Source: Schmidtea polychroa (taxonomy: Eukaryota). Taken from it: a stretch of 64,000 bases of DNA. The notes beneath the pieces were generated by a model. The model saw only the letters and a program-made list of their open reading frames with translations, was not told where the DNA came from and ran no database searches. The first letter of the stretch is position 1. The number at the start of each line of letters is the position of its first letter. The position numbers were made by a program, and so were the translations under genes. This document shows, piece by piece, positions 13,315 through 63,544 of the stretch. Where the stretch lies: assembly GCA_044892525.1 (NCBI GenBank), contig CM097885.1, forward strand, positions 24,244,001 to 24,308,000. The letters run 5' to 3'.

Positions 13315-14328
13315 TTAACAGCTATGCAAATGATTTTTTTTTAATTGTTATTAAATTGGTATATGAGGTATTGTTTTATAATTGTTTGGTGACTGAAAAT
13401 TTGAGTATGGAGGTTTGGAAAAACAATTTCGGTAAGGGACCTGAGTAAATTGGACACATGCCTTCTAACGGTAGTCCATGGACCAACAGAGTACCCGACA
13501 ATTATAGTGCCGTCAGTGCGCTCATTTTTTGCGAGTACTCACCCACTTGATACAGTACCAACGTTGATTACTCAATGGTTATCAAGCGGTAAACAATGTT
13601 GTATTTTGGGGTTACGCTGTTAACAGCACCGAAGAACAAATGTTTGATCACCAGTAACCCACCTCATGTAAGACATTAAAATTTTTTTTCCTTTACATAG
13701 ATTCATCGATTTTCCAATGTCAAATCATCACATCAAAACGTCCACTCGAATAGAGATCCTCGACTAATCGACATGTGAATAGAAAGACACATAAACAATT
13801 ACGATATCCTGTAGCGTTGATTTGCCAAAATTAGTATTACCCAATCGAATAAACAAAGTCTTCCGAATTACCGATGTCAACCGAGATCTTTGTTTATGGT
13901 TCTCATGAGCCGAGATGTAGATATCATTTTGTCCAGCCGAATACTCCTATTAATATCAACGTAGGCAATTATAAACAATTGAAACAAGCCGATTTGTGCG
14001 ACAAATTCTAAATATCAGTCCAAAAAGTTCATTCATATACATAATCCCTAGACAAATTAAAGCAATTCCCGACTGACACCGGCTAACTGTTTACAAAATT
14101 CGACGATAAAACGGAAATTTGCATTCCCATCGTGTTTACATAGATTATGTGCAACTTTTAATAATTAAATTATCAGTACATAATTAATTATGATTTTAGA
14201 CATTAGGATTTCTTTTCATTTATTATAAAACTAGAGGTAAATGCACCTATCAAGGGAATGCTATCGACCATAGAACCTCATAACCCATCAAAGAAATACG
14301 TTCTACTCACAGTTTTCCATATTACAAC

Positions 14329-15371
14329 TGTTGAGGTCTGTAAATTAAAATTAAAAATTTAAATAAAATTTAGGATAATAATTCAAATGGAAAGTAAGCG
14401 AGGAAAAAGGCAAATAAAAGCGGGATCGTGCACAGAATCAATAGAATTGGAAAGTGTGATGGAAACAGTATTAGAAAATGCAAAAAGCAATTACGAAAGG
14501 CGAGAATCCGGAAATCCGAGAAAAATCAATAAATGGAAAAATCATCGAAATCGAATGGGAAAAACGGGACAGGTATAGATTAGCTAATGGTCAACAATTT
14601 AATGGTTAGGGATTTATCAGAAAAGGGTTAGAAAGGGTCGAAAAACATTCAAACGTATGAAAACAGAAAACGTTAATTAATTAATTAATTGGCTAATGGA
14701 AAACCCGAGCTAATGGAGAACCCGAGAGATAAAGGAAACCCGAGCTGGGTAAACAAGAAGAAAGGCAAACAAAAGGAAGAATTGGGCCCATTAGCTAGAC
14801 ACATTGATTAATGGGAAAAGAGTAAGGAGAAGATAGCGCGCGTAGGAAGACCGGTAGGGACATTAATTATCTGGATTCGTTGGACCATTATGGGTGACAG
14901 CCGAAGCAAACACGTAGGAGAAAATGTCAAACGAAAGATTGGCTCGGCAATAACCATTTGTCATCCTGATTTCGAGGAGTATATAAGCAAAGGGAAAATC
15001 AGAGAAAATCGGCAATTTGCCTCAGGTAGGGTAAGAAGAATCGAGAATAGGCGAGAGGTAAAAACGAATTTAGGGAAGTAGGGAAAAGAAGAAATAGAAT
15101 TAAGAATACGAAAAGGTGAAAAGGAATCAAACCAAACAGAAACCGAGGAAAACGTGAATCGAGAGAGAATCTAAAGGATTAAAAGGTGAATATTATTTGT
15201 TTGCAAAGCATCAACGCCGAGTGGAGAATCGTATAAAACTTTGATTGGTAATTGTAGCGTGATAATCAATTGTGAACCTGTTGTTTCAATATACGTTGGG
15301 TCGTTCATTGTTTTGATTTAAAGAACACAGGAGTCAGAGAGAACCGACTTGAAATAATCCAAAACCCAACA
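14329..15371 (+). repeat. 5' LTR
   Basis: TGTTGA...CCCAACA; direct repeat of 20907-21962. Confidence 0.95.
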
Positions 15372-15378
15372 TATATTC

Positions 15379-15396
15379 TGGTGAGCCCGACGTGAT
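15379..15396 (+). promoter_or_regulatory. Primer-binding site, tRNA-Trp type
   Basis: TGGTGAGCCCGACGTGAT just after the 5' LTR; 1 mismatch to the canonical Trp PBS TGGTGACCCCGACGTGAT. Confidence 0.85.
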
Positions 15397-15649
15397 TGAA
15401 AGTCGGAGGAAAATTATTGGAAGCTAGTGAAAAAGGAATTGTAAAAAGAATTAGTACCGACGCGATAGAGAGTCGGCTGAGAATCATTGAAAGTAGTGGA
15501 AAATTTGTGAAAATAGTGCTAATTAGATTATTAAAGGCTATTATTGGGAGATTTAAAAGAAGTTGAAAAGTAATTTTAAATTATTGTTTAACTCAATTGT
15601 TTAGCTCAAAGTGAACCGATACAACCTCAGAAGTCAGAAACAAGTCCAA

Positions 15650-18600
15650 ATGGCAAATGATAATGCTGTTATGCCTCTCAATAGAGAGATGATTGATTTC
15701 GCAAGTTGCCAGAAATTACCCGTCAATCAATATGGAGGAGACCCTGTTGAATTTGCAGATTTCATGGGAGATTATTATATGTACGCCTCAGCATACGGAT
15801 GGACACAAGCCATTATGGTTCAGAGATTCCCACTCTATCTGAAGGGTGCGGCAAGAGAAGCCTGGCAGCAAGTCGACAAACGAAATGTTGGCAATGATTG
15901 GACAAAATTGAAGGATGCAATGGCACTGAAACTGGTTGGTGGAGATATCAAAAGAATCATGCGACAGAAATTTTATAATCGAGTTCAAGGTCCAGATGAA
16001 TCGGTCAGTGAGTTTGCGTATCATCTGACCACTTTAGCAGATAAAGCATTCGAAGTCAAACCAGATCAAGCAGATATGGCCAAGCAGGTTAAAGAGCTGT
16101 TAGAAGATCAGTTTATAACCGGAGTCCACTCCGAAATTAAAAAGGCCCTATGTTATGTGGATTTTTCCAATTTCGATGAGCTCGTGAAGAAAGCCATGAA
16201 GATAGAGCTGAATTTTAAAAGTGCAAAAAGATCAGATGCTTTTGGAGTTAATGTGGAGAGACGAGAGCGATCAATTACGCCTGTGAGAGCACCATGGGAT
16301 GAAAAGAAAATAAATCAAATCAGTAGTCCAATTTTGAGACCAAATAATAGATTTCAAGCCAGTAGATCAGCCATGAACGTACAATCAAATGGACAGGTAA
16401 ATAATCCTCAATGCGAACATTGCAAATGTCTGGACACTATTCAAATCAATGTTGGTTCAAATATGGGAAAAATCCCAGCCCTAACAAGAGATTCACAGAT
16501 AACAAAAGGATCAGCAGTGATGTCGAATGCTATCGATGCGGAAAGAAAGGGCATATTAGCAGAAACTGTTTCACTAGATCAAGATCATCGTCAACTTCAC
16601 CTTCACCACAAAGGGACAAAGTGAATACAAATGGACAGATACAATTTCATTCGTGCAAGGGATACGGCCACATGGCGCGATCATGCCCAAGGAACTCAGA
16701 AAGATTCAGCAGACCTATTTTAAAGAAATCAATCAGATTCCAAGAAGATATGCCAAACACCAGTAACATGACATATGCTCAGAGAGAGGAATTTCAAGAC
16801 AAAATGGAAAAGGAATTTCGAGAAATGCGACAGAAGCTGAACAAACTAGTGGCTAAATTTGAATCAGATGAAGAAACTGAATCTCATATGATAATTGGAA
16901 CCGTGTCAGAAGGTGAGGGAAAACCTGCCATGAAAGTGCGAAAGATCGCATCAGATGAGAATCCGACTGCACTGTTAGCCCGAGGTGAAAAATGGCTTGA
17001 GAAAATGGAAACTGACAATTCCCAGTTGAAACGATGGATCGCAGAACTCAGCGTGATGACACTAACCCAAAGCGAACTAAAGAGAGCCATAAATTTATGT
17101 GCAAAGTTATTCAAAGGAAACAGAGACGATGAGATACTTAAGCAAATGCAAAAGTTTGGCAAGGCTTTACGGTCAACAAGGGATTTAGCTGATATCATAG
17201 TGGAAACGATGGGACTTGATAATGTGAAGTGCCAATTCCGCGTAAATGCATACGGACAAATCAGAGAGCTAAAGGAGCGAATACTGCGTCAATACAGTTG
17301 ATGGCAAGTGGAACTAAAATTTGAGAATCGATGTCTGAAAGACGAGGAGTACTTGGTAGATTGCGGTCTGATACCAGGCTGGAGAAATAAAGTAAATGTT
17401 GTTAATGCTGTTAATACTTTGAATTCAGACAGACATAATTGGGAAAAGATTCTAGCAGATTTACAAGATACCCTGTATGCAGGAAATGGAGATAAAATTA
17501 ATGCGAGTATCGACTTCATAATGAGCATCAAAATGGATCGAGACATGAAAGAAGGGTTGTTTGAATGCATCGTACCGTATACGAATAAACCGACAAGTTA
17601 TCAGGCAAAGTTAAGAGGTAATCCGAAAACTAGGACATGATTATGATGCGGCAGACGATAGTGCGAAGTCTTTGATAATAGCGTTAAATATTGCGGATCA
17701 AAGGATTGAATATTATCAGGAACATTGGAGTGTAAAAGCAAAGAAAATACGACAAAAAGCAGCGGAGATATTAGGTAATGACGGAATTATCGTGTTGACG
17801 TTCAAAGGACGAGAATTGGATGATGACGAATATTTGTTAAACTACGGATGTAACCCAAAAAGTATTAATAATGTGTACGCAACAAAACAAAGTGGTGAAA
17901 TGGAAAAAGATGCAGTAATAGTACCGTTTTGGCCTCTGTGTGAGGAAATGGATAATGATAATGTAGAGATTAAAACTGAAGTTGTAGATGACCCAGGAGA
18001 AATTGATCAAGAAATTAATGAATTGCAGAGATTAGAAACAATGGAAAATGAGGAAATGAGATCGGAAAATGAAGTTACAAGGGATGTTGAGGAAACGAGC
18101 ACCGATAATAGGGTACTACCGAGCATAGATGAGATGAAAAGTGAAGAGAACTTCGTTGAAACTAAAAATGACATTGCGATATGTCGGAAAAAACAAAATG
18201 ATGCGGAAACGCAATCTTTGAGTTTAGATGAATCAAGCGAAACTGAGCGAATATTAAAAAGTTTAGTTACGGAATTGTACTTGTTAGATGAAACTGAAAC
18301 CGAAGATGATACTTCGGAAGGGGAGAAAAGAGTTGTAAAAAGATTGGCAACGGAATTAAAGAGGAGATTACCGTCGATAATTAAAAGAAATTATGAAGAA
18401 AAGGAATTTTGTTAGGAAGCAGTAATTGAGAACCTAACACGAACCGAGTTGGATCGAGATGTAATATTGACAGTGCTAGCCTATATAATATTGGAGATTG
18501 GTATTTATGGTTGTCTGGAAAGTGACAATTCAAAATCATTGATAAAGAAAGCTACTGAAATGACGAATAAATATTTGACTAAGTGGATCGCAAACAATGG

Positions 18601-20497
18601 CGGATGGGAAAAGTTAATACAAAAGGCTGAGAGCCCAAAAACAGAGACAGTGAGGAAAAAGGGAAAACTCGCATTTCCATGGTTGATGATTTCTATTATT
18701 ATGTTATTGGGAATAATAAACACGACGAATTCATTGGTGGCATACGACTGCTCCCAAACCGAAATGGGAAGAGTATATTCGTTGGTAAACGTAGCAGAGT
18801 GTTCGGATGCATATCCAGTAAAATTTAAAGTGACAAATCCAGTAAAATATTATGTATACCAAGAATCGGGATTTAGACGAGCAAAGGTGAGAGAGTGTAC
18901 AGTGAAACGAACTACTTTCGTATTTTATTGTGGAAAATGGAGCCACTCATCGATGGTGAAAATGCAATCGATACCTAGACCGATAGAAATAATTCCAGAG
19001 AATTGTTTGGCAGCCTTTCAAACAGGACAGTTGAAAATCAATGCAGATATCAAACTACAAGCAAAGCTTAACCACAAAATCCGTGAGACTGTAACCGTGC
19101 GAGGGATAATAAAGTCGAATGGTGACTGCCAAGGAGAGCCATACAAAGTAGACGATGCTATAATTGACAAAGCCGTGGTTGTGGAAGAGTACATGTCAGA
19201 ATTAAGAGAATTTGATGGATCATTTGATGATGATACTGGTAAACTACAAACACATCCATTCTGCAAAATGAAACAATCTAGCTGTAAGACAGGAGAATCA
19301 ATCTTGGTGTACGATGTCGATACCAAAAAGTGCAATTTAGTGCAATTGAAGTCAATGAGTTTTAAAGAAATAACGGGAGAACAGATCAGGGAAAAGCCTG
19401 AGAAAATAAGAATGGATCCAGCAACGAGTACAACAACAAGAATTACACCTCTACGGACGAAAGATACTCCAACAGTGTTAATGTCAACCTCGGAGGAAGA
19501 TGGGATGCGATTCCTGAGAAAAGAAACTAAAACAAAGTGTGGACAAAGTGTCTATGAGACAAATTATAAAGGTATATATGTATCTCAGAAGATGATTTCA
19601 GAGGCCCAAACAAACATACATGCCGGAGATATCAAGTTGACAAATTACTTTAATAACAAAATAGATTATTTATTTCACTTTGGTCAAAATACTGTTGAAA
19701 ATGTGTACCGAGAAGTTATTATAAATGATTGCAATCTCAATAAAGAAATACTCCGAAATCGGATGGCAATGGCTATAACCAATCCTAATTTGGTAGCACC
19801 AATGTTAATTACAGAAAATGGGGTGTTTGCCAGAATTTTCGGTGAAGCACTATATAGCTATAAATGTAAAGCGGTACCAGTTAAACTGACAAAGTATGAC
19901 CAATGCACCAACGAGTTACCAGTAAATTTAAATGGAAAGTTGCGATTTATGGAGCCTGTAACACGAATCTTACTGGAAGAGGACGTGAAACCGAAAGTAT
20001 TACAGTGTAATAGATTGTTGGCACCACTATACAGACTAACACCAGAATCTTGGATTGCATTACCAGATCATCGAGAAGTAAAGACACCGGAAAATTTAGA
20101 ATTGACAGAATTACAATATCTGGTAAATTTTACGTCGTTAGAAAAATTGTCGCAAAGTGGAATTTACTCGAACGAAGACATTGAGGAAGCTCGCAGACAC
20201 TTGTTATTTCCATCAAAGAAGGAAAGAGTAATAATGGAAATGCTAGATACAATTCTCCCAAGCGGAAGTGGAAAGGTAAATTACGAGTATTTGTTAACTC
20301 CAGATCATTACAAGAAAGCGACGTATAATACAATGAAAAAGATCTGGGGAAAGTTTATGTTCATTGGACAAGCGTGTGCCGGATTGATTGGAATTTATGT
20401 AATATGCGTTGTAATCAAAGTGATAATATCGCAGGTCCTGTCAACACACAGGTCTGACATGATGATAATGATGGCGTTTTCCCTTATCTCCTGCTAA
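15650..20497 (+). pseudogene. Polyprotein Gag-ZnK x3-UBL x2-acidic-Bcl-2-like-TM/signal-chuvirus-like glycoprotein (2 frameshifts, 2 in-frame stops)
   Basis: ORFs 15611, 16411, 17308, 17672 and 18449 join via a frameshift at ~16425 (restores CEHCKMSGHYSNQC), TGA 17299, a frameshift at ~17615 and TAG 18413. Capsid motifs FPLYLKGAAREAW and QGPDESVSEF; knuckle CYRCGKKGHISRNC. Confidence 0.8.
18734..20450 (+). CDS. Env-like glycoprotein region, chuvirus G-like (class III fusogen-like)
   Basis: Signal followed by LVAYDCS..YSLVNVAEC..VRECTVKRTTFVFYCGKWSHSS. GEALYSYKCKAVPV..CTNELPV..FMEPVTRIL pattern. TM at ~20353-20440. Confidence 0.8.
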
Positions 20498-20894
20498 ACT
20501 TTCTTGGTAATATCCAAATTATCAACACAAATTGAATCAAGTCCATTTAAACTAGTCGATTAATTTTCTTAATAAAGCGAAAATGGCATCAAATTAAATT
20601 AAAATATTTTAGTTTTATATCGTAAAAATTATTATAGATTTTGGAGTATGAAATTTATTTATTGTATGATAATAATGGTAATAATGGTAATAGAAATGAA
20701 TAATATTAATAATAGTAACAATAATAATATTAATAATAATAATACTCGTTAAATAATTAAAAGATTTCTTTCTAAAAATATTTAATAATTTAAGAGTATA
20801 AAGTACAATCTAATAATATTTAAATGCATGTAAAATTACGTCCAAGGACATAATCACAGAAAAACATAAATTTCGAGGACGAAAAAATTTTTTT

Positions 20895-20906
20895 AAGGGG
20901 GAGATA
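20895..20906 (+). promoter_or_regulatory. Polypurine tract
   Basis: AAGGGGGAGATA immediately before the 3' LTR. Confidence 0.85.
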
Positions 20907-21962
20907 TGTTGATTAAATTAAAATTAAAAATTTAAATAAAATTTAGGATAATAATTCAAATGGAAAGTAAGCGAGGAAAAAAGGCAAATAAAAGCGGGAT
21001 CGTGCACAGAATCAATAGTAAAGGAAAGTGTGATGGAAACAGTATTAGAAAATGCAAAAAGCAATTACGAAAGGCGAGAATCCGGAAATCCGAGAAAAAT
21101 CAATAAATGGAAAAATCATCGAAATCGAATGGGAAAAACGGGACAGGTATAGATTAGCTAATGGTCAACAAGATGATGGTTAGGGATTTATCAGAAAAGG
21201 GTTAGAAAGGGTCGAAAAACATTCAAACGTATGAAAACAGAAAACGCTAATTAATTAATTAATTGGCTAATGGAAAACCCGAGCTAATGGGAAACCCGAG
21301 CTAATGGAGAACCCGAGAGATAAAGGAAACCCGAGCTGGGTAAACAAGAAGAAAGGCAAACAAAAGGAAGAATTGGGCCCATTAGCTAGACACATTGATT
21401 AATGGGAAAAGAGTAAGGAGAAGATAGCGCGCGTAGGAAGACCGGTAGGGACATTAATTATCTGGATTCATTGGACCATTATGGGTGACAGCCGAAGCAA
21501 ACACGTAGGAAAAAATGTCAAACGAAAGATTGGCTCGGCAATAACCATTTGTCATCCTGATTTCGAGGAGTATATAAGCAAAGGGAAAATCAGAGAAAAT
21601 CGGCAATTTGCCTCAGGTAGGGTAAGAAGAATCGAGAATAGGCGAGAGGTAAAAACGAATTTAGGGAAGTAGGGAAAAGAAGAAATAGAATTAAGAATAC
21701 GAAAAGGTGAAAAGGAATCAAACCAAACAGAAACGGAGGAAAACGTGAATCAAGAGAGAATCTAAAGGATTAAAAAATGAATATTATTTGTTTGCAAAGC
21801 ATCAACGCCGAGCGGAGAATCGTATAAAACTTTGATTGGTAATTGTAGCGTGATAATCAATTGTGAACCTGTTGTTTCAATATACGTTGGGTCGTTCATT
21901 GTTTTGATTTAAAGAACACAGGAGTCAGAGAGAACCGACTTGAAATAATCCAAAACCCAACA
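20907..21962 (+). repeat. 3' LTR
   Basis: Near-identical to the 5' LTR, with one extra GCTAATGG.AAACCCGA unit. Confidence 0.95.
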
Positions 21963-22221
21963 CAACTACTATAATTTGGATTTATAATTTAAAAATATTT
22001 TAACTAAATTTTTCGAAAATAATCTTGATCAAAGCTCACCCTTAATAATTAGTATGCGATGCGAAATTACTCATTTGTGACGATGAAGATGATCAGACTA
22101 TAGCACTTAATTGCGTCGAGAGGAAGTGGATAGAGCGAACCACCTGAAGGACATAGAATTTTTTTTGTTAAAAATTAGTGGCAAAGTTTCTTATGATCTG
22201 CAATTATCACATTTAATTTAG

Positions 22222-49161: not shown

Positions 49162-50058
49162 TTAATAAATACGTAAAATTAGTGAATCATCCCACAACTG
49201 GCCATTTACAGGAATATTTTCACTATCTAGGATTTCATTTCCCCCTGATACAGTGCTACTTATAACACTATTTCCTGCGTGAGGTACCGGCAAACCAGGA
49301 ACACTTTCTTGTACCGCTACTATTCCATTAGAGTTCATTATAGGATAACTTGAAAAATTTCCCGTTATTCCATTTGTGAAATGTGACTCTTCATTTACCA
49401 ATGGTAATTGGCTATTAGCATGAAAAAAATCATCCCACAACTGCCCATTTACAGGAATATTTTCACTATCTAGGATTTCATTTCCCCCTGATACAGTGCT
49501 ACTTATAACACTATTTCCTGCGTGAGGTACCGGCAAACCAGGAACACTTTCTTGTACCGCTACTATTCCATTAGAGTTCATTATAGGATAACTTGAAAAA
49601 TTTCCCGTTATTCCATTTGTGAAATGTGACTCTTCATTTACCAATGGTAATTGGCTATTAGCATGAAAAAAATCATCCCACAACTGCCCATTTACAGGAA
49701 TATTTTCACTATCTAGGATTTCATTTCCCCCTGATACAGTGCTACTTATAACACTATTTCCTGCGTGAGGTACCGGCAAACCAGGAACACTTTCTTGTAC
49801 CGCTACTATTCCATTAGAGTTCATTATAGGATAACTTGAAAAATTTCCCGTTATTCCATTTGTGAAATGTGACTCTTCATTTACCAATGGTAATTGGCTA
49901 TTAGCATGAAAAACATTTCCTTCTAGAAACACCTCGGTACCAAGAACATTTTCTTGTATCGCTACTATTCCATTAGAGTTCTCGCTATCTGTTATAGATG
50001 ACACTTCATTTATCAACAGATTTGAACTTTGTGAAAAATCTGAATTTTTGATAGTCAT
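49162..50058 (-). CDS. 298-aa ORF of unknown function with three near-identical 81-aa (243-bp) repeats
   Basis: ATG start and open frame through the repeats (~49185-49912); N/S-rich, acidic. Confidence 0.5.
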   Translation of the reverse strand: MTIKNSDFSQSSNLLINEVSSITDSENSNGIVAIQENVLGTEVFLEGNVFHANSQLPLVNEESHFTNGITGNFSSYPIMNSNGIVAVQESVPGLPVPHAGNSVISSTVSGGNEILDSENIPVNGQLWDDFFHANSQLPLVNEESHFTNGITGNFSSYPIMNSNGIVAVQESVPGLPVPHAGNSVISSTVSGGNEILDSENIPVNGQLWDDFFHANSQLPLVNEESHFTNGITGNFSSYPIMNSNGIVAVQESVPGLPVPHAGNSVISSTVSGGNEILDSENIPVNGQLWDDSLILRIY

Positions 50059-50491
50059 TATTTTATTTATAAATCTAAGATTTACCGTATAAATCTACGA
50101 AATCCATCTCCCCGTAATTAATGAAAATTTTAAAACCCAATTTTATTTTTCTAAAACATTTAATATTAGTATTATGATATAATTATAATAATTTACAAGT
50201 AGTCGATTGACTAATAGTAAACAAAATTAAATAAGTTGTAATAAAACAATACTCAATAGCTTATTATAACTTTAAATACTAAAATGTGTATTTTAATAGA
50301 TTATTTGTCTTTTTCAGAAAAAGCTCTAAAATTACCTAATTTTTTAATTATTAAACAAAAATATTAATATTTATTAAATTTCTTAATCAATTATAAGCAT
50401 TTCTTAGAATTTTGACTCTTACAATTTTATCAATTATTGTGAATTCTTCAAAAGATAAATCAATTAACTTGAAAATTTATATCCTATAGAT

Positions 50492-58048: not shown

Positions 58049-61000
58049 TTATACCATTGTTGCCAGGGGACCTGAATGCAATGTGCGCATTCCCCCATAT
58101 CTTTCATCCGTTAGCCGGTATATGTCAAATTCGTTTACCCAATCGTCTAGGGTTTGTATTCTGAGTAATTTTTGCGTCCATAGTCTGCTTGACCTTGGAT
58201 CTTCAATCGCTTCGTACTCTTCTGGATTCGGGTTTTCTGTTGGAATACCATATTCGGAATTCTCCACTTGTGGCCATTTTTTTCTGCCTTTAGGTTTTTG
58301 TTTACATATTTTGGAGGTTCTTATCCATTGGATTATTATTGATGTTATCACTGCACTCATTATTGCGCTAGCGATCCACATCATTTTAACGGTTATCAGT
58401 GTCTTGTTGTTGAATTTTCCTGTCGTCATCATCATTTTAGTTTCTGTTGTAGTGGCCTCCTGTGTTTTATTTTTCTTGAGCATCTGGTATAACTGTTTCG
58501 TTTCTTCTGCCGTTAGATGTTCGTTTCCTTTTGGCTTTTCCACTTCTTTTGGTTTTCTGGTTGCCAATGGTATGTTTTTCAACCGTGGTCGTTGTCTGGT
58601 TATTGCTTGGCATGAACTTAAATCGCTTCCGTTTTTAAGAACGCATATGTGGTATCGTCCCTTTCTTTCTCCTATTGTCATTTTAACTTCTGCACCTTTG
58701 TCAAGTAGTGTTTCTATGCAGTCGACTATTCCTGTCCTGTTTAGTACACATACTCTTACTATTGGTTCTTCACCTTGGTTTCTGACCGTGATTACTTCTT
58801 CTCTTTTCTTGTTGAATTCGACATTTACTAGTACTTCTCGTCTCTCATCTTTGATCCATATTACTGTTGTGTTTTTCTTGGTTTGGTGCTGTCCTCTTAT
58901 CATTCCCGTACGGGATTGTTTCTGGGGTTTCTTAATTGCCGGTTTGATCCTTGGTTGATATCGTTTACTAGCCATACTTTTTGGCCTGCTTTTTATTTGC
59001 GCGGTTTTAACTGCTTTACATACCACTATTGCCTGGGTACCTGCGCATACCACCATGTTGGTGTTTGGTTTTACGTTTGTCCAAAAAAATTCGCGATCTC
59101 GTTTCATGTCCACCGTTATACATATGTCTTCGTCATCTCTTCCATTGTAGCTTTAATTGCGACATGTACTCCGGTTTCGTTAGCTCTTTCCAATTCTTTT
59201 TCTTCTGATGTTATGTCTTCGCAAATGTTGTAGTCTCCGCATAATTCAGGTTCTCCATTTTGACTATTGAAAATCCTCCCTTTTGTTATCGTTCTAAAAT
59301 CACAACTTACTCCGGTTCCTTCCATCAATTGGATGCATATCCCGACCGCGTTTCCGTCGTTGCCGCTGACTTTTATCATGAATAGTTCGCCTTCTTTCAG
59401 ATTTCCTCTCGTAATTCGCGTATTTTTCGTTTCTGTTAGGCAAATTGACGTTAGTATTATTAGGATAATTTGTAGTAGGAGTGACTGGTTTAGATTCTTC
59501 CGCATTACTATGTTATGCAGTGGGGACTTTCGTTTGTCGTTCTCTGTTTCATTATGTAGGTTGTCATCACTTTGGTCTGAGTTGTCCTCAGTATCCTTCA
59601 AGTCTTCGTCGTCATCTTCTGACTCCTTGTCTTCTTTATTATCTCGTTCGCCTGAATTCCCATTTATGTTGTTCCTTTCATGGTTCCCGTCGTCTTCCTC
59701 ATTTTTGTCGTTATGGTCTTTGTCATTTTTTCCACTCCGGCCTTTTCCAAAAATGTCGTCTTCGACATGTGATGTTTTGATCATTTCTTCGTGTTTATTT
59801 AAATGACTATTCTTCAGTGATTCTCTTACTATTGTCACTTTTCTATTGGATGGCCATGGTAATTCTTGTTCACATCTGATTCTCTCGTATTCACCATATT
59901 TTGATATCAACTCCGTTGTTCGTTTATATTCAAATCCCATAATCTCAGTACCCCGTACGTCTTTGACAAACTGTTTCATTAGCTGCGGCCATCTTTCCCT
60001 AAATCTGTTAATATATTTCTTCGTTTGATCGATTGCTTGTTTTACTAAGATTATTTGATTTTCCTTCATAATCTTTCGTTCAATCTTTTCTATTTCTGGT
60101 TCCACTTCATTGTTGAATATCTGTTGGATTTTTCTCAGTATTTCCGTTACTGATTCGTTGTCTCTGTTTTTCTTTAAGATTAAGATATTAACTTCGTTTG
60201 GCCATATCATCACATCTACTAAATGTATGCTCATTTTAACTTTATAACCATTGTCGTATAGCTGTTTATTTTTATGACTTGTTCCCATCTTTTGTTGTAC
60301 CCAATTATACAGTTTATCGGTATTTGTTACTTTTAATTCAATAATCTGTATCTGAGTTTCAGGGTGTTGAATACTTACTTGGTATTGATCTGGATCAACT
60401 TCTTTCAATTTTCCTTTATATTTCGTCACCAAATCTTTCCATGTTGCCGTTAATATATCTCCTTCCCACTGGTATGCTTGAGTTATCAGTTTTATACATT
60501 TTCTGTATGTTGGTTCGTTGATATAGCTCTCATTTCGTTCTCTTTCCGATACCGTGTCGGAAATTTCCTCAAATATTTCCTCATCGTCATTTTCTATCAG
60601 TGATTTCATATCGTCGCTCTCACCCTCTTCGTTATTTTGAGGTGTTCCTTGTTCATTATTTTCATCACTTGATTGAGATAATGCACTTCTCAGACTACTC
60701 ATCGTACTTTTCTCGTCTTCCTGGTCCGTCTGATCCTTCTGTATTTGTCTCAGCATGTTTATATTGGCTCTGTTACTTGGTTCTTTCTTTTCGAACCACT
60801 CATTTTTCCTGAACCAGTTGTCTTTTACTTTTTCTTTTACTTGCTCATCCGTTAAATTTGGTTCTTCTCTTCTAATTCTATCTTCAATTTTTTGTAGTAA
60901 TACCCTCTGAATTCGATTCTTTGTAACAATCTCGTTGCTTTTTGGTTCGTGCCCTGTTTCATCACTTCTTCGTCTCTTTTCTTTTTCCTCTTTGGTGAAC

Positions 61001-62685
61001 TCTTGTATTATTTTTATTTTATCCTCGCTACTCAGTTCTGTCAATTGCTCCGTCAATTGATGTGACCCATTTTCTTTTATCGCTTTCGTCTCGTTGATTA
61101 CGGTTATATCGCTCCCTTCCTTGTTAACACACTGCTCCGCAGTGTGCGGTTCCCCTTTGTTCATTGATCTCATCATATTTATTCTTCCGGTGTTGGTTTC
61201 TCGCTTTTTCCATCTTTTTTGAATTTCTCTGGCTTTTTCGTTTAGTGGTCTCTGCCCTTCGATTCGTTGCTGGTCTTGTTGTTCTCTTGTTGGTCGTTTC
61301 CGGATATCCTCTGGTATCCGTTGGATCATCTTTTTCAACTGTTCAATTTTCTGCATGATGTTGATTTGTATATTTTGACTTGGATCGTTTGCTCTTGGTT
61401 GATTATGTTTTGTCTTCATCGCGCATTCTCTCGCCACATGTCCAAGTTGGTTGCAACTGTAGCAGGTTCTAGTCCTTCCTCCTCTCATCGACATCATTGG
61501 TCCTCGGCATATATTTTCTGTGTGACCCCTTTTACCGCAATTTTGGCACATCCTTGTCTTATAACACTCGTTGCTCCAATGTCCTAGTCGTTGACATATG
61601 TTACACTTCCGATTATTGTTCTCGTTGTTCCTGAAATTATTAGTATAAAATTGAATATTACCTCTGTTATCTGGATTTGTCATTTTTGGCGCCTTGAACA
61701 ACTGTTGCGATTCTGAGATAAATTGATTCATTCCTAGATTTCCATTGTTGGTTTGATTAATTTCGGTTGTCGTTGTTGGTGTTGTAGCTATTGGTACTGC
61801 TGCCATTGCTGCTACTTGTACTGGAGTCAAGTAGTTTTCACATTTATTAGCGATTTTTAATGCTTCCTCGAGCGTGTCTGGTGCTCGGCACCCCACTGTT
61901 GCTCGTATGTCCTTTCTTTTCATACCCTCTACGAATACGGCTATTATCTTGTCTTCCGGAACTGTTTGATTTGAATCGAATGCTTCTTTTGCCAGTCGTC
62001 TTAATTCACATGCATATAGAGCGTTTGACTCATTGTATTTCTGCTTTCGATGCAGAAAATCCAACATTTTGCGATTTACTTCCCTTTTGCTACCGAATGT
62101 TTTTATTAAAAAATTCTTTATTGATTTCCATGTTTTTAGTTTTGTTGCATCACACTTTGCCTCTAAATATACATCTTGTGCACTTCCTCTTAAATATAAT
62201 GGTATTCGCTCTCGTACGACTATGTCTGGCCAGTGACATATTGTAATATATACCTCGAATTCTTTTATAAACGTTTCTAGTTCATTAATATTCCCATCGA
62301 ATGGTTCTCCTCGAAATCTTTCTCTAAGTTCTCCAACATTGACATTAACATGGTTTATCTCTGGTGTGTATGTCAACTCTGACCCATTCGGGTTGTTCAC
62401 TTGGTTTCCGTCTAACATTATATCTCGACACGAACTTGTCATGCCTGAACTACTATCTTCCTTGTCTGTTGGTTTGATATCAGTTACCGGATATAATTCG
62501 TTTCTTTTAATATCGTCGCTGTTTTCACCTTCGTTGGTTAAGCTGTCTGATTCAAATAATGTTTTCACTGGCGCTGGTTTCTTATTGATTCTTCTGTTTC
62601 TCTTGGCTCTTTGTCTCTCTGCGTTTCCTAATAAACTAGAGCCTCCTTTACTCTGCAATCTCGTTCGATTGGCTTTTTTATCCAT
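58049..62685 (-). CDS. Gag polyprotein (capsid, 3 CCHC knuckles, UBL-like, acidic, signal, ectodomain, TM); frameshift near 59150
   Basis: IPLYLRGSAQDVY and RKQKYNESNALYACEL; knuckles CNICQRLGHWSNEC, CQNCGKRGHTENIC, CYSCNQLGHVAREC. Hydrophobic segments at ~59431-59480 and ~58325-58385. Confidence 0.8.
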
Positions 62686-63544
62686 CTTTCTCGCTTTAAT
62701 AATCTCTTTTGAATTTCACTGTGTTTCGTTGGCCAACGCTTTAATTTTCCTCTTGGTATTTAATTTGACTTTGTTTACCTTTCTTCTATCCTCGTTTGAT
62801 TCTCTTGATTCCTTATTTGTTTTCTTTTGAATTTTTGATTTCTCTTTATTTCTCTTGAATTCTTGGCTTGTATTGACTTCCTTCTGACTTATTGATTGAC
62901 TTATTCTAAAATAATTAACACTCCTAGTACATATCATAATATTTTATTCATTTTATCCTACCCTTCATTTATTTCCCTATTTTCTTTATTTTATACTACT
63001 CTTTACTCATTATTTCTCTCGCTGTTCCTTTTCTAATTCATGGTACGCTTTTACTTTTTGCTACTCACCCCCCTTTGAATTTAAGTCCATTTTTAATTAT
63101 CTATAACTCGTATCAATTATCTATATCGTCGTATCAATTATCTATCGTATAATCACAACATCAATTATATAATTCAAAAATATATATCATTAGTCATATA
63201 CATATAAAACTCATCAGTAACTTAATTAATATCTCCTCATTCGCTTTTCCCCATTCAAAAATTTGGTTTCATTTTCTCTTGCGCCGGCGCTCTATCATAA
63301 TTTTCCTTTAATCATTACCTCTTTGTCGCACTTAATCTATGTCAATTTAATCGATTTCATCTTAATCGTTTATCTCTTTTATTTCGTTCATAGTTAATCA
63401 TCGACGCTTCGGTTCGCGCGACCTCTACGTCTACATTTATTTACCATCGGCTCCCTGGCTGGTTTAATCACCTCTCTTATTTCATTTAAATCATTTATTT
63501 TCATTCAATTACCATCGGCTCTCTGGCCGGTTTAATCAACTCAT

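Follow-up and report, generated by a model that had tools for sequence, protein, structure and literature searches.

The 64,000-nucleotide stretch of the Schmidtea polychroa genome analysed here (GenBank assembly GCA_044892525.1, contig CM097885.1, positions 24,244,001 to 24,308,000 of the forward strand; hereafter the window, with positions counted from its first nucleotide) carries a long terminal repeat (LTR) retroelement in which a domain with a predicted Bcl-2 fold stands ahead of an in-frame envelope glycoprotein (Env). Judged by its sequence, the element is a Burro-type Gypsy retroelement, placed by the published domain order (PMC6431247). Our overall reading, which we consider probable, is that its Bcl-2 module is anchored on the endoplasmic reticulum (ER) via the Env signal, where it may damp host cell death or ER stress. 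The Bcl-2-Env fusion as such has already been published for Burro (PMC6431247). Beyond the Burro section of that paper we add a supported fold and a topology model for an Env in frame between Gag and Pol, as well as evidence for an anchor derived from a viral signal peptide and a consistent loss of BH3-groove motifs. The features on which this reading draws are:

18224 to 18634, plus strand: Bcl-2-fold domain, helices 1 to 8 (model of sister copy L013, residues 1-137; profile match to Bcl-xL)
18332 to 18364, plus strand: helix 2 at the BH3 position, without the BH3 Gly-Asp (model, lineage alignment)
18413 to 18415, plus strand: in-frame stop private to the window copy (1 of 72 distinct copies)
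18449 to 18484, plus strand: degenerate BH1 at the NWGR position, start of helix 5 (hidden Markov model alignment, lineage alignment)
18584 to 18607, plus strand: BH2 motif W-I-x-x-x-G-G-W (PDB search, copy survey)
18656 to 18733, plus strand: basic patch, hydrophobic helix and small-residue -3/-1 site, the predicted internal Env signal peptide and membrane anchor of the upstream product
18734 to 20353, plus strand: Env ectodomain, Monjiviricetes-type fusion glycoprotein (PF24664, E 1e-89, 302 bits, over the cut-off)
20354 to 20428 (approximate), plus strand: Env C-terminal transmembrane helix (hydropathy peak of 2.64 at the corresponding site in a full copy)

A predicted Bcl-2 fold with an altered BH1

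A first-pass annotation of this DNA had proposed a captured Bcl-2-family domain from a few motifs, and these are found in the window sequence where it placed them: the BH2 segment LTKWIANNGGWEKL at 18575-18616, the degenerate BH1 segment LDRDVILTVLAY at 18449-18484, the BH3-like helix VVKRLATELKR at 18332-18364, KKGK at 18656-18667, a hydrophobic helix at about 18668-18718 and LVAYDC starting at 18734. The Bcl-2 motifs sit inside an LTR element spanning 14329-21962, and a TAG at 18413-18415 divides the domain of this copy in frame. Comparison with Pfam gave a divided answer: the window sequence matches Bcl-2 (PF00452) at E 0.015 and 16.3 bits, below the 31.4-bit cut-off, whereas two diverged families in the same genome reach E 2.3e-6 and 1.9e-5. 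In bits, the window family scores 13-19, with one copy giving no match, and the two sister families 25.6-29, all below the cut-off. The window sequence also reached E 0.013 in a phmmer search of the PDB, in which the best 60 of the 91 rows (E<=10) were all Bcl-2 or Bcl-xL. A profile built from ten element sequences alone matches Bcl-xL at E 8.9e-6 and aligns NWGR to DRDV at the BH1 position of the window, which bears out the degenerate BH1 of the first reading.

An AlphaFold2 model of the unbroken sister copy L013, made with 17 element-only alignment rows, gives a helical bundle around a hydrophobic helix 5, with a predicted local distance difference test score (pLDDT) of 71. The model matches Hydra Bcl-2-4 at Z 15.4 with a root-mean-square deviation of 2.6 Å over 134 residues, and the first 34 rows of the structure search are all Bcl-2-fold proteins, the first unrelated row having Z 6.2. 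Foldseek gave probability 1.0 with a best E of 3.7e-3 and no row at E 0.001, and a viral structure library gave no match at E<=0.001, its best rows being herpes- and iridoviral Bcl-2. The similarity to Bcl-2 is beyond chance, and on the model the domain is predicted to have a Bcl-2 fold with BH2 kept and BH1 altered. With a helical bundle predicted and the GGW of BH2 conserved among copies (see below), the homology that had been proposed from motifs holds.

The domain is retained across 12 lineages at about 16-39% identity. An alignment search for longer relatives found three, and a word-index search with the same aim found none among 1346 candidates. BH2 is retained in 11 of the 12 lineages, P0068 being degenerate. 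At the Arg place of NWGR there is a Lys or Arg in 10/12 lineages, and the Gly place holds a polar residue in 11/12. The BH3 Gly-Asp is absent from every row of the lineage alignment, in which helix 2 is present; the proposed BH3-like helix therefore stands by position, as helix 2, and not as a BH3 motif, since it lacks the Gly-Asp and is not conserved between lineages. Because the NWGR Gly has been lost in 12 of 12 element lineages, ordinary BH3 binding by the domain appears doubtful.

The hydrophobic helix as a probable part of the glycoprotein

Relatives of the Env were sought among 1.84 billion representative proteins, which returned 336 matches, 150 of which were listed. Among 43 full-length, Met-initiated proteins in this list, 34 have a YDC-type motif at residue 15-50 (median 24), and in those 34 a hydrophobic N-terminal stretch directly before the motif forms a classical signal peptide. 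Of these 34 stand-alone proteins, 24 have small residues at -1/-3 ahead of the xxA/G triplet, and the same core and -3/-1 site are found in all ten long relatives that lack Bcl-2 and in 9 of the 12 Bcl-2-bearing elements. Here, lacking Bcl-2 means that up to 230 residues upstream show neither a Pfam match nor a BH2-like motif; three of the ten start only about 150 residues upstream, and four carry protease, reverse transcriptase, RNase H and integrase (PR-RT-RH-IN) in the same chain. A signal-peptidase-type site is thus present before LVAYDC, as had been proposed, and since a site directly before the Tyr fits about as often (23/34, 8/10 and 9/12) the predicted bond is located only to within three residues.

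In the Env tree 17 proteins with an internal signal form one clade against 12 stand-alone glycoproteins (100/100), within which a subgroup (93/93, not starred) unites the seven Bcl-2 bearers with five rows without Bcl-2. The Bcl-2 domain itself keeps a fixed position, 45-79 residues ahead of the Env start across lineages. From these sequence comparisons the helix and xxAYDC are predicted to be the glycoprotein family's own signal peptide, present without Bcl-2 too, and the pattern suggests that the internal signal arrived with Env and that Bcl-2 was inserted ahead of the helix and later lost at times.

The first-pass annotation had told the opposite story, in which a host tail-anchored Bcl-2 gene was captured together with its tail anchor, which replaced and now acts as the Env signal peptide. 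In cellular Bcl-2 proteins the membrane helix starts about 20 residues after BH2, and the helix of the window family begins at the same distance; the fusion may also have fallen inside the hydrophobic stretch. We nonetheless regard this history as improbable, given that the same helix, c-region and xxAYDC occur in 10/10 elements without Bcl-2 and at the start of stand-alone glycoproteins, that rows of the internal-signal Env clade outside the Bcl-2-containing subgroup lack Bcl-2, and that the spacer varies from 45 to 79 residues. A tail-anchored protein has, as made, a single membrane helix at its extreme C-terminus and is inserted after translation. The helix in question occupies residues 1032-1050 of a 3,334-codon frame and becomes tail-like only after cleavage; it is not a tail anchor when made because some 2,280 residues follow it. 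A literature search, with most subscription papers and Repbase outside its reach, returned no paper on a signal-peptide or anchor role for this segment.

Elsewhere the same glycoprotein family follows immunoglobulin domains (P0134) or a chromo domain (P0102), and several polyproteins (among P0134, P0102, P0010, P0011 and P0051) have two or more aspartic protease domains after Env.

The family in the genome and selection on the domain

We surveyed the genome (781 Mb, 1012 contigs) for copies of the element. A full copy (L061/L062) consists of a single 3,334-codon frame that reads, in order, Gag, CCHC knuckles, ubiquitin-like domain, Bcl-2, helix, Env, transmembrane helix, PR, RT, RNase H and integrase. 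It measures at least 14.3 kb, the sequence fetched ending before the 3' LTR, and the window copy is colinear with it at 94.7% from the 5' LTR to 20451. Its strong hydrophobic helices lie at residues 1032-1050 and 1600-1618, one on each side of Env. Further hydrophobic segments are seen at residues 1920-1938 and 2257-2275 of the L062 open reading frame (ORF), after the integrase, in a Pfam-less region at the end of the polyprotein.

Of 1185 candidate copies 150 were scored; all 150 match the domain at 89-100% identity, and in 134 of them the Bcl-2 domain is stop-free. For the finer comparisons 92 loci were reduced to 73 distinct copies; these are the best-scoring copies, compared pairwise and not corrected for relatedness. 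The W, G, G and W of BH2 are retained in 69, 73, 73 and 72 of the 73. The stop at 18413 is present in 1 of 72 distinct copies, and this count refutes the idea that programmed read-through of the TAG controls the choice between a Gag-only and a Gag-Bcl-2-Env product. The TAG is indeed in frame in the window copy, but that copy also has two frame breaks, another stop and no pol, and we give such a role practically no credence. A non-autonomous subfamily sharing the pol deletion was likewise considered and rejected, as the junction is spanned by the window alone (1 of 40 scored matches).

The pairwise ratio of nonsynonymous to synonymous diversity (piN/piS) of the Bcl-2 domain is 0.52 (95% interval 0.30-0.87), compared with 1.06-1.45 for shifted frames of the domain, 0.25 for the helix plus Env and 0.63 (0.38-1.12) for an acidic linker. 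From these ratios, selection on the Bcl-2 domain appears present and relaxed relative to Env. They also bear on the possibility that the domain is a decaying relic, jobless and persisting as an open spacer. In a single ORF a stop in the domain would truncate Env and Pol too, so stops are selected against irrespective of the domain's own role; the domain's ratio is double the Env value and close to the value for the acidic linker, and BH1 is degenerate. Against this, the interval of the ratio excludes 1, BH2 is kept in 11/12 lineages and the fold is predicted for the window family despite its low identity to the others, which makes a relic very unlikely.

Two further families in the genome have the Bcl-2-helix-Env junction, namely family B (L093-L099, L103-L109), which has many copies with frames of about 3,050 codons, and family C (L101-L102). 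Contigs of four presumed-RNA runs cover the window family and show no splice-type joint into Bcl-2 or Env, a result that is uninformative on splicing.

Origin of the domain and other Bcl-2 genes

The genome also holds canonical Bcl-2 genes with NWGR, Bok-like genes and multi-copy stand-alone Bcl-2 genes in Polinton-like elements. A phylogeny against host Bcl-2 genes, which had been suggested as a check on the capture, leaves capture from the host or from another mobile element likely on sequence grounds and places no donor, with 4 of 20 branches starred. Neither the elements as one clade (p-AU 0.49, approximately unbiased test) nor the elements together with the Polinton-borne copies (p-AU 0.45) was rejected, and the elements group with Bok-like rows at 91/99 (unstarred); a single origin, a Polinton link and a Bok link all survive the tree tests. 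The PDB profile search puts Bcl-xL, Bcl-2 and A1 first and lends no support to a Bok origin. One Bok-like exon of the host shares 90% identity with Bok-1 of Schmidtea mediterranea.

The stand-alone Bcl-2 genes (L046-L060, L100, L112; flanks L143-L146) lie on three contigs and are near-identical over whole 3.3-kb loci, and one type has a short intron before BH2. We place them in Polinton/Maverick-like elements because of their neighbours, which include a TBP-like gene, an A32-type ATPase, chromo domains and a 1,389-residue ORF resembling a protein-primed DNA polymerase B. Seven near-identical NWGR Bcl-2 genes (L031-L037) are found within 0.9 Mb (G000:C4, 89.9-90.8 Mb) with 97-99% identity over 2.8 kb, a cluster which may be a recent tandem amplification or an assembly artefact.

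Comparison with known systems

By its published description (PMC6431247), Burro/GYPSM1 of Schmidtea mediterranea and Dugesia tigrina resembles the element in having one ORF with Gag, three CCHC knuckles, a ubiquitin/SUMO-like and a BCL2-like domain, an in-frame mononegavirus-like Env and then PR-RT-RH-IN, and in its many copies and planarian host. The order given there for Burro is Gag, MATH, a Ubi/SUMO-like motif, BCL2 and then Env in frame before PR; the Env matches arthropod and fish mononegavirus glycoproteins, and the group also carries a BIR/IAP domain (PMC6431247, Arkhipova and Yushenova 2019). The BCL2-like motif of Burro-2, -3 and -4 is credited in the same paper to Grohme et al. 2018, and its authors call for apoptosis experiments; its Burro section does not discuss a signal peptide or topology. 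The giant Burro elements exceed 30 kb with an ORF of 4,873-5,140 codons (near 4,900 residues), compared with at least 14.3 kb, 3,334 codons and an LTR of about 1 kb here. In the main ORF of the full copy, Pfam gave no match (E<=0.05) to the MATH, BIR, ankyrin or dUTPase domains of Burro. The first-pass annotation had mentioned an IAP-type domain in a planarian giant retroelement and expected the Bcl-2 domain to be a parallel capture. That IAP-type domain corresponds to the BIR of the Burro group, and as BCL2 directly before an in-frame Env is already described in that same group the capture is not a parallel or separate one (PMC6431247). BURRO1 is under PIWI control, and the text available from that study does not mention Bcl-2 (PMC8532177).

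Like the Bcl-2 family (PF00452), the element domain has an eight-helix fold by prediction, a BH2 and a hydrophobic helix C-terminal to it. Unlike that family it has no NWGR and no BH3 Gly-Asp, scores below the Pfam cut-off and is embedded in a polyprotein, with an internal signal as its anchor and not a terminal tail. Viral Bcl-2 proteins (KsBcl-2, BHRF1, A179L and the motif-poor F1L, DPV022 and M11L; PMC11209288) share with it a selfish carrier, the Bcl-2 fold and eroded motifs (Z 8-13), but are separate genes of double-stranded DNA viruses with their own anchors, whereas here the domain is a module of a retroelement polyprotein. Anakin (PMC12440569, PMC7642597) is likewise an LTR element with an acquired Monjiviricetes-type (chuvirus) glycoprotein, although it is a mosquito element for which the available text of these papers reports no Bcl-2. 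In the text available to us, PMC12440569 and PMC11410931 contribute just the Anakin precedent and context.

Proposed topology and function

Very probably, the glycoprotein inherited the helix as its signal peptide, and the helix serves as an internal signal-anchor while the chain is being made. Since it is internal to a 3,334-residue chain, the product would enter the ER while being translated. The signal-anchor would thread Env into the ER lumen, signal peptidase would cut at LVAYDC or up to three residues away, and the second helix would bring Pol back to the cytosol; an internal signal combined with a second helix could explain how Env stands in frame between Gag and Pol. On balance we expect the N-terminal product to remain on the ER, its Bcl-2 domain on the cytosolic side; the element's protease may cut this product away from Gag. 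Ending in the helix and a few uncharged luminal residues, it would have the end topology of a tail-anchored Bcl-2 protein, on the ER. A membrane-anchored Bcl-2 product, as foreseen in the first-pass annotation, is the likely result, while its description as the native topology of the family would apply to the end product only, the helix being internal and ER entry taking place during translation. A comparable arrangement is known from the core-E1 junction of hepatitis C virus (HCV), where the signal sequence of the following glycoprotein holds the capsid-side protein on the ER once signal peptidase has cut, as predicted here, until signal peptide peptidase frees the core (PMC3200325). The HCV proteins are unrelated to those of the element.

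Held on the ER, the domain may dampen the cell-death or ER-stress signals that production of Env and particles sets off in the host, a step to which we give slightly less than an even chance. It would do so via a narrowed or non-standard surface instead of the usual NWGR groove. The poxviral F1L and DPV022 lack clear motifs and still bind Bak, Bax and Bim (PMC2836074; PMC11209288). A host Bak BH3 exon was not found in two 9.9-kb stretches.

Several observations count against our overall reading. Neither the Gly nor the Trp of NWGR is present in any of 12 lineages with the column filled, the Arg place holds Val in the window family, and loss of the Gly is taken to make a BH3 groove unlikely (review, PMC8998228). 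A single-sequence model lacks the Bcl-2 fold (pLDDT 62, template-modelling score 0.26 to Bcl-2), and a language-model search ranks the atypical Bfk, BID and Bcl-G nearest, with recognition below the reliability mark. The piN/piS of the domain is double that of Env and its interval overlaps that of the acidic linker, the Env tree needs three changes of the Bcl-2 label, and ten related elements manage without the domain. Finally, ER anchoring would put the domain away from mitochondria.

The main rival keeps the same topology but has a repurposed fold unrelated to apoptosis, whether as a cytosolic scaffold that blocks innate signalling, a matrix-like link from Gag to the Env membrane or an aid to membrane shaping at budding. 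Poxviral A46, A52 and B14 block innate signalling. Such a change of use would suit several features: none of the 12 lineages keeps the NWGR Trp or Gly and 11 have a polar residue where the Gly should be, the BH3 Gly-Asp is absent, the domain has a set position 45-79 residues before the Env start and a covalent tie to Gag, and it is made 1:1 with structural proteins. Nevertheless, we think it unlikely. The L013 model is nearer to cellular and herpesviral BH3-binding Bcl-2 proteins (Z 12-15) than to N1L, A52 and B14 (Z 5.9-7.7), BH2 is strongly conserved, the anti-apoptotic BIR is another component of Burro, and the Bcl-2 domain is not an essential structural part because ten relatives do without it. 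In a broader and similarly doubtful form, a clade of Gag-Env-Pol elements would use the Env signal peptide to fix a Bcl-2 fold to the ER on its cytosolic side, and hence to that side of the budding particle, 1:1 with Gag, with the uniform Trp-Gly loss marking a new function other than BH3 binding, such as ER-stress or Bok control, a block to innate signals or matrix-like membrane work.

If the domain works as we propose, in damping death or stress signals from the ER, it would be a rare example of a retroelement product directed against cell death in its host, here an animal that relies on cell death for its tissue turnover. Its compact size of 137 residues makes the apoptosis question raised in PMC6431247 directly testable. 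Should an ER- or particle-tethered domain with a new function prove to be the case, then together with the Polinton-borne Bcl-2 genes it would point to several kinds of element contending over cell death in the stem-cell tissue of planarians.

The window copy and its surroundings

The remaining features of the window copy are:

14325 to 14328, plus strand: left target-site duplication, 4 bp, with its second copy at 21963-21966 (sequence)
14329 to 15371, plus strand: 5' LTR, TG...CA, about 1.04 kb (LTR comparison)
15379 to 15396, plus strand: primer-binding site (sequence), putatively for tRNA-Trp
15605 to 16600, plus strand: Gag, Retrotrans_gag and CCHC knuckles (PF03732 E 1.5e-9, PF00098 E 7e-9), with a frame break near 16426
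17200 to 17370 (approximate limits), plus strand: ubiquitin-like domain 1 (PF00240), with a stop at 17299-17301 in the window copy
17790 to 17870, plus strand: possible second ubiquitin-like domain, weak (PF00240 E 0.075)
20451 to 20452, plus strand: junction beyond which PR-RT-RH-IN is missing, private to the window copy (spanned in 1 of 40 scored matches)
20896 to 20906, plus strand: polypurine tract (sequence)
20907 to 21962, plus strand: 3' LTR (LTR comparison)

The two LTRs are 96.9% identical over 1049 columns, with 14 mismatches and 2 gaps. PF00240 matches ubiquitin-like domain 1 at E 4e-4 in the full copy and E 0.0024 for the domain alone; in the possible second domain, which follows just downstream of a frame break near 17615, a terminal Gly-Gly was not seen. 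The window copy has lost its pol, its frame is broken near 16426 and again near 17615, and stops interrupt it at 17299 and 18413; it is a dead member of its Gypsy family.

A second Gag-bearing element (Retrotrans_gag, CCHC) lies at 58049-62715 on the minus strand. It gave no Env or Bcl-2 match in Pfam; within its frame of 1,199 residues an internal hydrophobic helix stands ahead of a region containing Cys, an arrangement that resembles another internal signal. At 49162-50094 on the minus strand, an open frame of 310 codons is built of three near-perfect 243-bp repeats and belongs to no credible family by Pfam. A hAT transposase-like frame of 611 codons with a BED finger and a dimerisation domain occupies 558-2393, also on the minus strand.

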